A DNA stretch of 64,000 nucleotides. Source: a virus (lineage: Duplodnaviria; Caudoviricetes). The stretch lies in IMG/VR virus record IMGVR_UViG_3300025018_000091, one strand, 5' to 3'. The notes beneath the pieces were generated by a model, which did no database searches, was not told the origin of the DNA, and worked only from the letters and a program-made list of their open reading frames with translations. This document shows positions 54,583 through 64,000 of this stretch, in pieces. Made by a program: the position numbers and the translations under genes. Numbering within the stretch: position 1 is the stretch's first letter; each line of letters begins with the position of its first letter.

Positions 54583-55452
54583 TCACAATATAATTGGAGT
54601 TGCTGATTCTTCATATCCAACATTAAGTAACATTTCTACATTATTTGGATCAAAATCTAATGAACTATCTATATTAAACATTTTATGTGGTTGTAGCAAT
54701 CTAATCTTAATGTTTTTATATGTCTCTCCTAATTTTGCTAAATCATTTTTCAACCCACAAACCTTCAAATCTGCCCTAATTATTTCATCACTCATAATAT
54801 CAACCGCTCGTAAAGCATAATCTGGTAATGCATGTTGTTTTTCTGTATTCCAATTAGATGGTAAATCTGGATTGCTACACATTATAATATCTATTTCTGT
54901 AGCACCTAAACGAATAGCCTCTCCTAATGGAGTTACATTTCTTAAACCACCATCAGACCATAGTCTTCCATTAATTTCTACTGGTAACATAAATACCGGA
55001 AAACTTGAAGACGCCGCTACCCATTTATCAAAATCTGGATCATTTTCACTTGCCATATAATATTCACCAGTATCCCAAGCAACTGCTCCAACCCTTACCG
55101 ATCTCCCTGATTCACTAATCGCCTTATTATCTAACTCTAAATTAATCCATTTTAATAAAGGACTAGAATCATAAACAGACGGCTTCCATAATGATGCCAA
55201 CCTCCCCCAAAATATCCAATCTTTTCTTACATTATCATTATTAACCCTACTCCATAATTTTGATAAAACATTTATAGATTGTTCTGGATTGCCATATGGA
55301 ATCTGAGATAAACAAGCTACATTTATCGCTCCAACACTGACTCCACATAATATTTCATAATCAATTTTATCTTCACCCATCCATCGTTTTAATGCACCAA
55401 CTTGATATGCTCCCTTAACCGCACCGCCAGATAATACTAACGCTTTTTTCAC
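54583..55452 (-). CDS. Patatin-like phospholipase
   Basis: Gly loop SGGAVKGAY, nucleophile GVSVG (GxSxG) and DGG (SDGGL), all intact. Confidence 0.9.
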   Translation of the reverse strand: MKKALVLSGGAVKGAYQVGALKRWMGEDKIDYEILCGVSVGAINVACLSQIPYGNPEQSINVLSKLWSRVNNDNVRKDWIFWGRLASLWKPSVYDSSPLLKWINLELDNKAISESGRSVRVGAVAWDTGEYYMASENDPDFDKWVAASSSFPVFMLPVEINGRLWSDGGLRNVTPLGEAIRLGATEIDIIMCSNPDLPSNWNTEKQHALPDYALRAVDIMSDEIIRADLKVCGLKNDLAKLGETYKNIKIRLLQPHKMFNIDSSLDFDPNNVEMLLNVGYEESATPIIL

Positions 55453-56231
55453 AGAAGACTCCGTTTCGAATATTGTTCCAAAATCTTGATTATTCTAAAT
55501 GATAACTTTAATCCCAATCTATAGTCATCAATACCATTAATAACATCCATAAATACCTCTAAAGCATTTGACAATGGTTTTGATGAGGACGGAATAGAAT
55601 CATCATAAACATATCTTGGATACGAATCTATTGACAATTTTCTTTGTTTAAATAACCCCCCATTACCAACAATACTAATAGTTTTTAATTTATCAAACAG
55701 TAATTCAATACTATAAATCTCTCCATTTAGATATGGATACTTATTAATGTAAACTGATTTAGGATCTTTGTTTAACAAATCCAATATCATAGATAAATCA
55801 TGAGGACCATAATCCCATAAACTAGAGTAATCTCTATAAGGACCAGTATTAAATCCTGCTGAAGAAATACTCTTAATAGAATTAATATCAATTACGTTTT
55901 TTATATATTGATATTGTTTAGAAAACAAATGAATATGATTTACCAATATTGGTGCTGAAAATTTCTCTAATTCCATAGCTTCAGATAAAGATAAGCTCAA
56001 TGGCTTTTCAATCATAGTTGGAATATCTTTTTCTAATGAATAACTGGCAATCTCTATATGAGATTGCGGAGGCGTACAAACAATCACACCATCAGGATTT
56101 TCATCTATTAATTGCTTCCAGTTATGTCGGTTTGCAACAGTTAAATTAACATTAAAATCTTCTAATGTTTTAATATAGTTTTTACCCCAAACTCCAGAAC
56201 CAATTAGCAATAATTTAGTGCTTGGCATCAT
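55449..56231 (-). CDS. Gfo/Idh/MocA-family oxidoreductase (possible NDP-sugar ketoreductase)
   Basis: 'LLLIGSGVWG', 'VIVCTPPQSH', 'MIEKPL', 'LWDYGPHDL'. Confidence 0.85.
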   Translation of the reverse strand: MMPSTKLLLIGSGVWGKNYIKTLEDFNVNLTVANRHNWKQLIDENPDGVIVCTPPQSHIEIASYSLEKDIPTMIEKPLSLSLSEAMELEKFSAPILVNHIHLFSKQYQYIKNVIDINSIKSISSAGFNTGPYRDYSSLWDYGPHDLSMILDLLNKDPKSVYINKYPYLNGEIYSIELLFDKLKTISIVGNGGLFKQRKLSIDSYPRYVYDDSIPSSSKPLSNALEVFMDVINGIDDYRLGLKLSFRIIKILEQYSKRSLL

Positions 56232-57150
56232 CTAAATACCAATTAACACATTCTTCCAAACCTTTTTCAAAAGTATAGCTTGGTTTCCATCCTAATTCTA
56301 AAATCTTAGAGTTATCTATAGAATATCTAAAATCATGTCCGGGTCTATCCGCAACATGTTTTATTAAATCTCCACTATACCCTATAAGATAACAGATATT
56401 AGTAACCATCTCTACATTAGTACACTCATTGCCAGATCCAATATTGTAAATTTCATTTACTTTACCATTATTTATTAAAAACATAATAGCGTTACAATGA
56501 TCATTAACATACAACCATTCTCGTATTTGTTCTCCGCTACCATGTATAGGTATGTTTTGGCGAGCCAAAACTGATGTTATTATTTTGGGAACAAGGTTCC
56601 TTGGTGGCTGGCGCGGTCCAAAATTATTACAGCACCTGGTAATAATATAATTTAAACCATGGGTTTGATTGGCTGCCTTAACAATTAATTCACCAGCTGC
56701 CTTAGATGCTGAATATGGATTCCTTGGATTAATTGGATCTTTTTCCGTCCACGATTTATCATGTTGAGATTCTAATTGTCCATATACCTCATCTGTGCTA
56801 ACATACATTAGCTTTTCAACATGAAACTTCATACACATATCAACAACAATTTGGGTTCCAAGAACATTTGAATGTATAAATGGCAATGCTTTTTTAATGG
56901 AATTGTCAACAAACGATTCTGCAGCACCATGAATAACAATATCTGGTTTTTCTATCGCAAATACTCTATCCATAAAATGAACATCAGCAATATCACCAAT
57001 ATGTAGTTTATATTTCGGATCAACATTTTTTAAATTATGTTCTTCAATAAGCTTATCAACGCCTACAAATTCATAATCTACATTTTTAATTGTTCTAACA
57101 AAATTAGAAAATATAAAACCACAGGTACCAGTTACTAATACTTTCTTCAT
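56215..57150 (-). CDS. rmlB: dTDP-glucose 4,6-dehydratase
   Basis: 'VLVTGTCGFIFSNF', 'HGAAESFVDNSI', 'STDEVYG', 'YSASK', 'TRCCNNFGPRQ', 'IREWLYVNDH', 'DRPGHDFRYSID'. Start taken at MKKVL (ATGA overlap at 57147-57150). Confidence 0.92.
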   Translation of the reverse strand: MKKVLVTGTCGFIFSNFVRTIKNVDYEFVGVDKLIEEHNLKNVDPKYKLHIGDIADVHFMDRVFAIEKPDIVIHGAAESFVDNSIKKALPFIHSNVLGTQIVVDMCMKFHVEKLMYVSTDEVYGQLESQHDKSWTEKDPINPRNPYSASKAAGELIVKAANQTHGLNYIITRCCNNFGPRQPPRNLVPKIITSVLARQNIPIHGSGEQIREWLYVNDHCNAIMFLINNGKVNEIYNIGSGNECTNVEMVTNICYLIGYSGDLIKHVADRPGHDFRYSIDNSKILELGWKPSYTFEKGLEECVNWYLDDAKH

Positions 57151-62310: not shown

Positions 62311-62996
62311 TTGATTGCTTCCGAAATAAAACTATGCGTCATGCCTGCATCTACTATAACGTTAGCCATATTGGGATCTTTACTTTTGCCAGACATATTG
62401 TAAAATTCTATTTTCTTAAAATTTGCTTCAGACAAAAATTTGGTCATAGAACTTTTATTATACATACACATATGTCCTTCATAGAAATCCCAAGTACAAT
62501 TCTCGCCACAAGCGCCAAACATTAAATAAGATAACTGTAATGAAGGCTCTGCGTTACTATAAAATAGTGGTTGCTCACTAGCAAACTTATACATTTTATT
62601 ATTTATGTAAGCATCTATTAAAATATCTAAATCTGGAGTTGTTATCCTGATAACTCCACCAGGCTTTAGCATTCTATAACATTCTTTTAATAATCTTGGC
62701 ACTTCAAAAATTGGATTTAAATGTTCAATTACTTGACCAATATAAATAGAAGTAATACTATTATCTTCATGTTGCGCAAATCCTTGTCTTAAATCATGAA
62801 TGCGGAAATCAAAATCTTCGCCATTTTTAAGAAATTTTACACATTGTTGAACACTTTCGGCATACATGCTCAAATCACTATTTACACTTGTTCTTAAAAA
62901 ATGTAAATAAGTTGCGAAATCAGCACGATCATAGTTAATCCATGTTGTTGGTAACATAATTGGACCACAACCAATATTTAATCTTACTTCTTGCAT
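62307..62996 (-). CDS. Class I SAM-dependent methyltransferase (type 11-like)
   Basis: 'LNIGCG', 'HDLRQG', 'VIEHL', 'LKECYRMLKPGGVIRITTPD'. Confidence 0.85.
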   Translation of the reverse strand: MQEVRLNIGCGPIMLPTTWINYDRADFATYLHFLRTSVNSDLSMYAESVQQCVKFLKNGEDFDFRIHDLRQGFAQHEDNSITSIYIGQVIEHLNPIFEVPRLLKECYRMLKPGGVIRITTPDLDILIDAYINNKMYKFASEQPLFYSNAEPSLQLSYLMFGACGENCTWDFYEGHMCMYNKSSMTKFLSEANFKKIEFYNMSGKSKDPNMANVIVDAGMTHSFISEAIK

Positions 62997-62997
62997 C

Positions 62998-64000
62998 TTA
63001 TTTTCTATATGGAGTTGTAGGATAATATGGAATCATTGGATCAGTTTTTGATTTTTCAATCATATCATAAAACATCTTTTCCCAATCTTTAGCTAAAGAA
63101 TCTAATCCAAAATTCTCTTTTGCATATTCCTGTAATACTAATCTATCATCTTCACTATTATTAAACATTGCATTAATGACTGCGCTGATAAAATTATTCT
63201 TATATTCTGAAGTTGTCCAATCACCAGGTATTAATGTCCCTCGTTCTCCTACTGTTTCATTTAAAGCTGCAATACTTGATGTAACCATACGCAATCCAGC
63301 AGCTTGAGCTTCCATTGCAGTAATACAACTTGTTTCAGTAAACCAAGTAGGATGTATCCAACAACCTGCACTTAAAAATTCAATTGCCAATTCATCTTGA
63401 TTTACTCTATCATGATAAAAAACACCCAATGACTCCATATCTTTTATTTGTTTCTTAAGTCTACTAATTAAATCAGCCTGTCCCTGATCATATTGTGCAG
63501 AATATTCCCAATTTTTGAAACCATAAAATAAATGTAATTCTGCCTTTGGAACATGTGCCTTAATAGTTGTCCAACATTCTAGCAAAATTGGCCAACTTCT
63601 ATCAGGACTACTACTATTAACTGCTTTAAATCTATTTCTTGGAACTTTTTTATTAAATCTGTTTAAATCAATTCCATTTCTAGTAACTGATACTTGTTCT
63701 GGATTAATATTATGTACTCTAATGATATTATTTTTATGCCAATCAGATAACGCTAATACCTTATCTGTTTTTAATAATAATTCACTGGTCGCACCATTAG
63801 CAATTACATCATGAACCCATAACAATGTTACTTTTGCTTTTACATTATACTTATCTGCTAACATAGATGCATGACGTGATACAACCAAGATATCGCATTC
63901 TAAATTAGCATATTTTTCAGTTCTATAATATTCAACACGATCATAAATTCCTTCATTATTTCCACAACTATTATAAACACGAACTCTATGACCTAAAGCA
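62998..64000 (-). CDS. Glycosyltransferase, GT4-like (5' end lies beyond the window)
   Basis: The frame is open to the window end (ALGHRVRVYNSCG...ECDILVVSRH); 'NSSSPDRSW', 'ETSCITAMEAQAAG'; paralogue of 58781-59911. Confidence 0.85.
   Translation of the reverse strand, partial: ALGHRVRVYNSCGNNEGIYDRVEYYRTEKYANLECDILVVSRHASMLADKYNVKAKVTLLWVHDVIANGATSELLLKTDKVLALSDWHKNNIIRVHNINPEQVSVTRNGIDLNRFNKKVPRNRFKAVNSSSPDRSWPILLECWTTIKAHVPKAELHLFYGFKNWEYSAQYDQGQADLISRLKKQIKDMESLGVFYHDRVNQDELAIEFLSAGCWIHPTWFTETSCITAMEAQAAGLRMVTSSIAALNETVGERGTLIPGDWTTSEYKNNFISAVINAMFNNSEDDRLVLQEYAKENFGLDSLAKDWEKMFYDMIEKSKTDPMIPYYPTTPYRK

Follow-up and report, generated by a model that had tools for sequence, protein, structure and literature searches.

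A branched-sugar and glycosyltransferase operon beside collagen-like fiber genes in a huge environmental phage: a putative virion glycosylation system

A window of 64,000 bases (bases 48834–112833) was analyzed from IMG/VR record IMGVR_UViG_3300025018_000091, a 138,879-base sequence of a tailed phage with a CheckV completeness of 32%, whose source is an aquifer metagenome. On the minus strand of this window, positions 55449–64000 hold an operon of genes for sugar-nucleotide synthesis, glycosyl transfer, and methylation, and genes for collagen-like fibers lie upstream, beyond the window. One of the glycosyltransferases (GTs), an 815-amino-acid (aa) protein with a family 2 domain, a tetratricopeptide repeat region, and a family 4 domain (GT2-TPR-GT4), is also recorded on a contig of 444,127 bases, suggesting that the phage genome is about 444 kb long. 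Enzymes were assigned by Pfam, NCBIfam, and PDB searches, and genome-wide gene searches covered 139 of these ~444 kb. From the gene content, motifs, folds, synteny, and gene fusions that were directly observed, we propose that the operon may serve to glycosylate collagen fibers, or at least virion proteins, of this phage.

Eight complete open reading frames (ORFs) and one ORF that stays open at the window edge make up the stretch. Junctions between the cluster genes measure −46 to +3 nucleotides (nt); with ATG 57150 as the start of the RmlB-like gene, the range narrows to −4 to +3 nt. The sugar and GT genes form a translationally coupled run. A preliminary description of this DNA had named the main enzymes, all of which were found at 55449–64000 on the minus strand by ORF, Pfam, NCBIfam, and PDB searches. 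It had also predicted that the operon continues past the window; the open frame at 62998–64000 proved to encode the C-terminal GT4 domain of the GT2-TPR-GT4 protein, whose complete gene spans L001:7831–10278 on the minus strand, or 62998–65445 in window numbering. Baseplate and tail sheath genes are located downstream of the cluster on the same strand within the window, and the major head gene (phrog_2522, 5e-78) lies about 9 kb upstream (L001:18328–19341, minus strand). GC content is even (0.29–0.37 across the window and 0.305–0.318 within 55449–64000, matching the remaining phage DNA), and therefore the glycan cluster is not a recent import.

The RmlB-like gene (56215–57192, minus strand) encodes a predicted nucleoside diphosphate (NDP)-glucose 4,6-dehydratase that scores just under the cut-off of TIGR01181. 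Other models gave far lower scores, with 101.6 bits for CDP-glucose dehydratase and 53.5 bits for GDP-mannose dehydratase. The motifs STDEVYG and YSASK, which hold the catalytic Thr-Asp-Glu and Tyr-x3-Lys residues, are invariant in five sequences. Because ATG 57150 forms an ATGA overlap with the stop codon of the adjacent C-methyltransferase gene and is shortly preceded by GGAG, translation probably starts there and yields a protein of ~311 aa.

That adjacent gene (57147–58358, minus strand) encodes a 403-aa NDP-hexose C-methyltransferase of the TylC3/MtmC/TcaB9/KijD1 type. The protein consists of three domains, all above their cut-offs: a zinc-binding domain (PF08421, 55.7 bits), a class I S-adenosylmethionine (SAM) methyltransferase domain (PF13489, 43.1 bits), and a C-terminal domain (PF08484, 138.8 bits). 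Its PDB matches extend over the full length (MtmC, 5.8e-68; TcaB9, 3.3e-58; KijD1, 3.8e-58), and two CxxC pairs and a Y-H-E-H segment align with MtmC and TcaB9. We take the four cysteines to be zinc ligands and the Glu-His pair to be catalytic, in line with the literature on TcaB9. By homology, the enzyme is predicted to act at C-3 of a 4-keto sugar.

A small cupin of 139 aa is encoded at 58360–58779 (minus strand). Its AlphaFold2 model, built from a 35-sequence alignment, has a predicted local distance difference test score (pLDDT) of 93, and the top 50 Foldseek matches of the model were almost all CapF C-terminal domains, FdtA/FdtD/QdtA ketoisomerases, RmlC, and EvaD, with template modeling (TM) scores up to 0.72. 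Profile matches included Cap5F (4.7e-4), a WxcM-like protein (0.18), and an RmlC homolog (0.5). Pfam gave no FdtA or RmlC match for this protein, only Cupin_2 and Polysacc_synt_C, both under cut-off. Four histidines (H59, H61, H66, and H107, the first two forming the His-x-His pair) are invariant in 35 homologs. These data support a function on an NDP-keto sugar, and the cupin is proposed to be either an epimerase or a 3,4-ketoisomerase; the evidence is compatible with a 3,4-ketoisomerase as well as with a 3- or 5-epimerase, and the conserved histidines likewise fit either an isomerase or a metal-dependent epimerase.

The last gene of the sugar block (55449–56231, minus strand) encodes a 260-aa NAD(P) oxidoreductase of the Gfo/Idh/MocA family (PF01408, 1.7e-10, 42 bits against a cut-off of 24). 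Its translation contains IGSGVWG (GxGxxG), EKP, and DYGPHD (D-x3-H). The best PDB match is the uncharacterized protein 3c1a (9.4e-23), and no match to KijD10 was found in the PDB at E<0.01. Its position in the operon leads us to propose that it is an NDP-keto-sugar reductase.

A dehydratase, a C-methyltransferase, a cupin, and a reductase follow the logic of branched 6-deoxysugar synthesis, as the preliminary description had suggested, and this view agrees with hidden Markov model (HMM), PDB, and fold matches as well as with catalytic residues, which were checked for degeneracy and are intact. The cluster resembles the TylC3, MtmC, TcaB9, and KijD1 pathways (mycarose, tetronitrose, kijanose) in that the same type of enzyme, with Zn-Cys4, class I methyltransferase, and C-terminal domains, stands downstream of an RmlB-type dehydratase. 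In contrast to those pathways, it lacks the 2,3-dehydratase, the aminotransferase, and the 3-ketoreductase by which 2,6-dideoxy sugars are made; therefore, the 2-hydroxyl is probably kept, as in sugars of the virenose, cereose, or evalose type. One could also imagine that the cluster makes a glycosylated small molecule similar to a secondary metabolite, because 3-C-methyl deoxysugars are best known from antibiotic pathways and MtmC, TcaB9, and KijD1 are the closest solved enzymes. However, no enzyme that would form an aglycone, be it a polyketide synthase, a nonribosomal peptide synthetase, or a terpene synthase, is located nearby, the sugar goes to GT4 and GT2-TPR transferases whereas those of the known pathways go to natural-product GT1 enzymes, and the linkage of the cluster to fiber genes is conserved. 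This possibility appears extremely improbable.

The preliminary description had also regarded such chemistry as typical of antibiotic and lipopolysaccharide pathways rather than phages, which was overstated. Homologs of the C-methyltransferase were detected in other huge phages (634–735 kb) and in the cultured Synechococcus phage DSL-LC02. In the 642-kb phage LR756502.1, an 867-aa fusion of a short-chain dehydrogenase/reductase (SDR) and a C-methyltransferase (L016:10648–13251) is part of a long sugar cluster on one strand that also encodes a DegT aminotransferase, an SDR-GT2 fusion, GT11, and GT17, and this is a separate branched-sugar locus in another huge-phage lineage. Branched-sugar chemistry is therefore not unique to the clade of the present phage, since C-methyltransferases, one of them fused to an SDR, occur in other huge phages.

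We then consider the enzymes of sugar transfer. The 815-aa protein starts with a GT2 domain (PF00535, 58 bits), in which DTGS and DADD (DxD) are invariant in 25 homologs, and ends with a GT4 domain (PF13439, PF13692); TPR matches between them are sub-threshold, yet they recur in orthologs. The best PDB matches of the GT2 domain are GmaR (7e-14), SunS (1e-13), and ThuS (4e-10). GmaR is the flagellin O-GlcNAc transferase of Listeria, and SunS and ThuS are peptide S-glycosyltransferases. These nearest solved relatives share with the phage protein a conserved DxD and helical TPR-like repeats after the catalytic domain, whereas they lack its C-terminal GT4 fusion. At least 760 homologs of the 815-aa protein were found; the top ones are 50–75% identical, and many of them lie on contigs of 427–479 kb. 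A GT2-TPR profile search of genome contigs returned only two contigs of metagenome-assembled genomes, one of which is identical to the phage-like contig L011, and no cellular homolog.

Two further GT4-like enzymes follow in the operon. The first, of 367 aa (61207–62310, minus strand), is a GT4 glycosyltransferase by PF00534 (4.9e-21, 75 bits). The second, of 376 aa (58781–59911, minus strand), is a GT4-like protein of the GT-B fold with a marginal match to PF13692 (30.8 bits against a cut-off of 27), and its EX7E motif (E281-x7-E289) is invariant in five orthologs. A PDB sequence search with the 376-aa protein was empty, but its model (pLDDT 73) matches ManT, PimA, and MshA with E-values of 1e-13 to 1e-12. 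Together with the C-terminal part of the 815-aa protein, these two account for the "at least three" GT4-like enzymes that had been predicted.

Of the three further methyltransferase domains predicted at the same time, two are firm and the third is weak. A 229-aa class I SAM methyltransferase (62307–62996, minus strand) matches PF13489 with 34.1 bits and PF08241 with 32.8 bits, and the C-terminal half of a 432-aa two-domain protein (59915–61213, minus strand) is an FkbM domain (PF05050, 3.6e-17; TIGR01444, 8e-23). The N-terminal half of the latter is weakly similar to class I methyltransferases, with sub-threshold Pfam matches only and no PDB match. In many homologs of GT2-TPR-GT4 from relatives, a methyltransferase homologous to the 229-aa protein is fused to the C-terminus, and the FkbM domain is fused to a GT4 in relatives as well. 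Such Rosetta-stone fusions suggest that transferases and methyltransferases work on one shared glycan.

A hydrophobic 19-mer of the kind expected for a membrane segment is missing from all cluster enzymes, and neither a flippase nor a polymerase nor a lipid-carrier transferase was found in or beside the cluster. Since the GT2 relatives GmaR, SunS, and ThuS modify proteins or peptides, a TPR region follows the GT2 domain, and these membrane functions are missing, a protein target is favored. The same observations bear on the idea that the operon remodels a glycan of the host envelope (O-antigen, capsule, or S-layer) during infection for superinfection exclusion or receptor masking. Sugar and GT clusters of jumbo cyanophages have been read in this way (Iyer et al. 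2021, PMC7824862). GT4 enzymes and FkbM methyltransferases are also common in O-antigen loci. However, the cluster and its surroundings are devoid of membrane-spanning enzymes, an initiating phosphoglycosyl transferase, and an ABC exporter as well, the cluster is flanked on the late strand by head and tail genes, and its closest solved GT2 relatives act on proteins or peptides. We consider an envelope target improbable.

A second use would be the attachment of sugars to hydroxymethylated bases of the phage DNA, a hypermodification against restriction. DNA glycosylation is the classical use of phage GTs (PMC9614988), and the search for base-modifying enzymes covered a third of the genome. Within that 139-kb fragment, no thymidylate-synthase-like hydroxymethylase was found, which is weak evidence against this use and agrees with the earlier remark that no base hydroxymethylase was visible. 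Moreover, four GT domains, a TPR region, and several methyltransferases are unlike known DNA glucosyltransferases, and the cluster lies in the structural module and not with genes of nucleotide metabolism. A DNA target seems very improbable.

What lies upstream of the operon suggests an acceptor. The gap between the GT2-TPR-GT4 gene and P0001, a collagen/BclA_C gene of 282 aa (L001:10334–11182, minus strand), is 55 nt, and there is no terminator-like site in it. P0001 is preceded by P0002 (L001:11186–14443, minus strand), a 1085-aa collagen protein with a globular domain between its two collagen segments, and then by two conserved genes without assigned function (291 and 200 aa; L001:14451–15933, minus strand). 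A third collagen/BclA_C gene, P0003 (L001:17219–18253, minus strand), is located past a gene for a CCA-adding enzyme. Threonine occupies position Y in 10/21 triplets of P0001, 90/188 of P0002, and 34/39 of P0003, 134/248 in total. With the BclA_C model PF18573, the scores of 30.6 and 24.4 bits stayed under the cut-off of 38. In the ESM Atlas, the closest clusters to the head of P0001 were BclA_C, C1q, and collagen, with a feature similarity of 0.94 and structural TM scores of 0.76–0.88.

At least four more genes with collagen repeats lie before the window (G000 8347–8517, 9764–9931, 22366–22782, and 25171–25266), and the phage encodes seven or more collagen-like proteins. The two conserved genes at L001:14451–15933 also precede the large collagen gene in L008, L009, L010, and the 193-kb contig described below, and they are candidates for a fiber anchor or chaperone; Atlas look-ups of both gave no usable function, a hint of DUF4183 or T7 fiber at 0.81 being too weak to count as evidence. 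The CCA-adding tRNA nucleotidyltransferase gene (L001:16054–17298) is on the plus strand, opposite to the collagen genes between which it lies, and it has a similar place in relatives.

We examined eight related contigs, namely L006, L007, L009, L010, L011, L012, a 472-kb JGI contig, and a 193-kb contig. The order collagen gene, GT2-TPR-GT4, and sugar genes recurs in all eight wherever flanking DNA or gene tables existed; thus, the cluster is present and linked in relatives. By GXY counts, a large Gly-X-Thr/Gln collagen gene was detected within three genes upstream of GT2-TPR-GT4 in L006, L007, L009, L010, L011, and L012, with a collagen Pfam match recorded for L006. In the 472-kb contig the collagen gene was found by Pfam, and in the 193-kb contig, available as a gene table only, a 2258-aa gene with no recorded Pfam match occupies the collagen position. 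The C-methyltransferase and RmlB genes, one or more methyltransferases, and GT4 enzymes follow in every contig with downstream DNA. The cupin and Gfo genes follow in most relatives, with no cupin recorded in L011 or L006 and no Gfo in L006; Gfo orthologs occur at the same position in L009, L010, L011, L012, and the 472-kb and 193-kb contigs.

In L007, which is 75% identical, six tandem paralogs of ~330 aa (3855–9964) lie between the collagen gene and GT2-TPR-GT4. DGY/GYG runs occur in several of these genes, and Pfam matches in none. Alignments of P0001 with these paralogs and with other fiber heads were too poor for use. Megablast of the window against 50,697 phage records gave zero matches. 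A search with the tail sheath protein found one distant phage only, indicating that no cultured close relative is available.

In relatives, the sugar cluster tolerates insertions in addition to the domain shuffling seen in the fusions. A response-regulator receiver gene is located between the cupin or C-methyltransferase gene and RmlB in L009 (16875–17285), the 472-kb JGI contig, and the 193-kb contig, and in two relatives it is fused to a dual-specificity phosphatase domain. Genes for GIY-YIG homing endonucleases are present in L010 (17708–18265) and the 193-kb contig; the insertion site is between C-methyltransferase and RmlB in one relative and after Gfo in the other.

Based on the protein-directed GT2 module and the neighboring fiber genes, we lean toward a system in which an oligosaccharide that holds a C-methyl 6-deoxyhexose is O-linked, in the cytoplasm, to the phage collagen fibers or at least to virion proteins. 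The preliminary description had pointed to DGY but left the target open among virion proteins, DNA, and the host surface; the upstream Gly-X-Thr collagen genes and the SunS/GmaR-like GT2-TPR enzyme narrow it to a virion protein. The operon would be the enzyme half of a late virion-module system, a soluble pathway that glycosylates a structural protein in the host cytoplasm. NDP-glucose, probably dTDP-glucose, may be supplied by the host or by an RmlA-like gene elsewhere in the 444-kb genome. The RmlB-like enzyme would convert it to NDP-4-keto-6-deoxyglucose, the C-methyltransferase would transfer the methyl group of SAM to the carbon beside the keto group (C-3 by homology), the cupin would epimerize or isomerize the keto sugar, and the Gfo/Idh/MocA enzyme would reduce the keto group to give an NDP-C-methyl-6-deoxyhexose; the order of these steps is itself only proposed. 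The SunS/GmaR-like GT2-TPR module may then place the first sugar on the protein acceptor, and the fused GT4 and the two further GT4 enzymes may lengthen the chain, four GT domains in all. Two or three methyltransferase domains would methylate the sugars, presumably on oxygen and not on nitrogen or protein. The acceptor is most likely the Thr of Gly-X-Thr triplets in the upstream collagen fibers, and the product would be a BclA-like glycoprotein fiber on the virion.

Several observations weigh against this hypothesis. At the level of enzymes, the RmlB-like protein matches TIGR01181 strongly (2.3e-106), but its 355.5 bits are below the equivalog cut-off of 365.1, and its NAD motif reads TG(T/S)xGFIF, with Phe in place of the third Gly of TGxxGxxG in 5/5 sequences including the second paralog. 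The top NCBIfam model of the 815-aa protein is the SunS family TIGR04195, with 54.9 bits far below the cut-off of 350. Searches for RmlA (PF00483) were negative for the 139-kb fragment (of ~444 kb) and for three fragmentary relatives, a result of little weight as these records are 4–32% complete. If the cupin is a 3,4-ketoisomerase, the step order or the branch position would differ. In L006, the C-methyltransferase frame (9990–11260) is broken by an in-frame TAG and a frameshift, which may be an assembly error or gene decay. We rejected a recoded stop as the explanation, as one TAG is accompanied by a frameshift and no single reassignment lengthens ORFs generally. In addition, the gene order comes from related genomes (GT identity 50–75%), which are not independent replicates, and all relatives in the clade are metagenomic contigs; the reading is a prediction from sequence. 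Finally, the complete 42.6-kb genome of podophage MW202524 encodes a full-length homolog of GT2-TPR-GT4 (30% identity, 96% coverage) two genes after the capsid gene. A GT4 and methyltransferases accompany this homolog, and the whole genome has neither a collagen gene nor sugar-nucleotide genes. Thus, the enzyme family overall needs no collagen acceptor. The constant theme of the GT2-TPR-GT4 family is the neighborhood of head genes, and a collagen acceptor can at most be a trait of the huge-phage clade.

The podophage also gives weight to the explanation that the same glycan decorates other virion proteins, such as a capsid decoration or tail and baseplate proteins including those that bear DGY tripeptides, the collagen genes being mere neighbors. 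DGY is over-represented about 9-fold in the whole 139-kb fragment (89 seen against 9.7 expected from composition) and is concentrated in large structural proteins, and DGY-bearing paralogs stand between the collagen and GT genes in L007. Capsid and tail proteins are glycosylated in mycobacteriophages, according to the statement in PMC11652166 that cites Freeman et al. (2023). On the other hand, the collagen gene is the constant upstream neighbor in the clade relatives examined, Gly-X-Thr repeats are a proven type of O-glycan acceptor in BclA, and the capsid protein of this phage has no Ser/Thr-rich extension. In addition, no known GT recognizes DGY, and nothing ties DGY to the enzymes of the cluster. 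We regard other virion proteins as unlikely acceptors, yet as a serious alternative.

Extending the collagen hypothesis to the clade, we would suggest that phages of 430–480 kb carry virion fibers with an exosporium-like nap of hydroxyproline-free Gly-X-Thr collagen, which is O-glycosylated by the phage GT2-TPR-GT4 with an oligosaccharide whose C-methyl-branched, O-methylated 6-deoxyhexose is made wholly by phage enzymes, and that the family is a general virion-protein glycosyltransferase encoded near head genes in phages from 42-kb podophages to those of 480 kb. This broader statement is tentative, and we would place it slightly short of probable.

The predicted system is similar to that of BclA, the exosporium nap glycoprotein of the Bacillus cereus group with its operons for rhamnose, anthrose, and cereose, which has a Gly-X-Thr collagen stalk, a C1q/TNF-like BclA_C head, and sugar and GT genes near the collagen gene. 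Collagen regions of Bacillus BclA carry short O-glycans ending in anthrose or cereose (PMC12357932; PMC10050317), rare methylated 6-deoxy sugars to which the predicted sugar of the phage cluster is similar. There are also differences: the present system is encoded by a phage and not by a spore former, the BclA_C match of the phage protein is under the Pfam cut-off (30.6 vs. 38 bits), a dehydratase of the dTDP-glucose type takes the place of the CDP-glucose type found in Bacillus, the reductase belongs to Gfo/Idh/MocA instead of SDR, and the initiating enzyme is a GT2-TPR-GT4 fusion. The N-terminal leader for exosporium targeting is not expected in a phage. Li et al. (J Biol Chem, 2017) are reported to have described cereose as a 3-C-methyl-6-deoxyhexose whose synthesis takes a dehydratase, a C-methyltransferase, and a reductase.

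In Clostridioides difficile, bclA3 and the glycosyltransferase gene sgtA are in one operon (10.1101/2025.06.24.661383), which resembles the phage arrangement in that a GT gene is cotranscribed with a collagen-like BclA gene. This comparison concerns layout and not the SgtA sequence; the order is reversed in the phage (collagen first), and the phage operon additionally encodes a complete pathway to a sugar nucleotide as well as four GT domains and methyltransferases. Mimivirus and other giant viruses glycosylate their fibrils with virus-encoded enzymes, including with methylated rare 6-deoxy sugars (PMC9614988). By gene content, not by sequence, the likeness is that of a very large virus with its own sugar-nucleotide pathways, GTs, and collagen-like proteins. 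However, those are eukaryotic viruses, and their collagen-modifying L230 glucosylates hydroxylysine and not threonine, whereas the present virus belongs to the tailed phages and has a head gene of the HK97 type.

Among phages, virion glycosylation by phage enzymes has, to our knowledge, been shown recently and in mycobacteriophages only, with simple transferases. As far as we know, these phages supply only the transferases, draw the sugar nucleotides from the host, and glycosylate capsid or tail-tube proteins at C-terminal extensions. The GTs located beside structural genes that modify capsid and/or tail proteins, as stated in PMC11652166 with reference to Freeman et al. 2023, are a parallel to our locus. 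The latter differs in its full branched-sugar pathway, its proposed collagen acceptor, and a capsid protein without such an extension. Another parallel is gp12 of SPP1, a collagen-like trimer on the phage head (PMC7602432), as the collagen genes of our phage are also close to the major head gene. However, gp12 is a small protein for which no glycosylation is known, and the present fibers may sit on the head or on the tail.

The proposed system combines virus-encoded virion glycosylation with BclA-type collagen glycoproteins. A full-text literature search found no description of this locus, of phage collagen glycosylation, or of a phage branched-sugar pathway. If the wider hypothesis on the clade is true, the operon would contain the first branched-chain sugar pathway encoded by a phage and would be the first system of a bacterial virus to glycosylate collagen. 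Virion glycosylation would be extended to huge environmental phages and to a collagen acceptor. By making its own rare sugar, the phage would be independent of the sugar repertoire of its host. Glycan-coated fibers would matter for how the phage recognizes its host, for the stability of its particles in groundwater, and for protease resistance. Spore BclA naps, giant-virus fibrils, and phage fibers would then be linked as systems that look convergent. The conserved GT2-TPR-GT4 family could serve to find virion glycosylation in other phages, and the enzymes may be useful in glyco-engineering as a soluble branched-sugar pathway with a predicted protein O-glycosyltransferase for simple Gly-X-Thr repeats.

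Some additional features were observed around the operon. A second glycan cassette on the same strand (L005:1877–8555, equal to G000 41877–48555) ends 279 bases before the window start. It contains a GIY-YIG/NUMOD3 endonuclease, an RmlB-like dehydratase that is 51% identical to the RmlB-like enzyme of the main cluster, two GT2 genes, a DUF4379 protein, and a GT4. Directly downstream of the operon, a patatin-like phospholipase gene (window 54583–55452, minus strand) shares 4 nt with the end of the Gfo gene and has the same position in L010 and the 193-kb relative. A scan for promoters and terminators detected sites no more numerous than in shuffled sequence. A 13-bp perfect palindromic hairpin with T runs is located directly after the major head gene (L001:18269–18298). 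The DGY tripeptides within the window lie at 1265–5311, 5359–12522, 38938–44829, 46682–48250, and 51227–51595.

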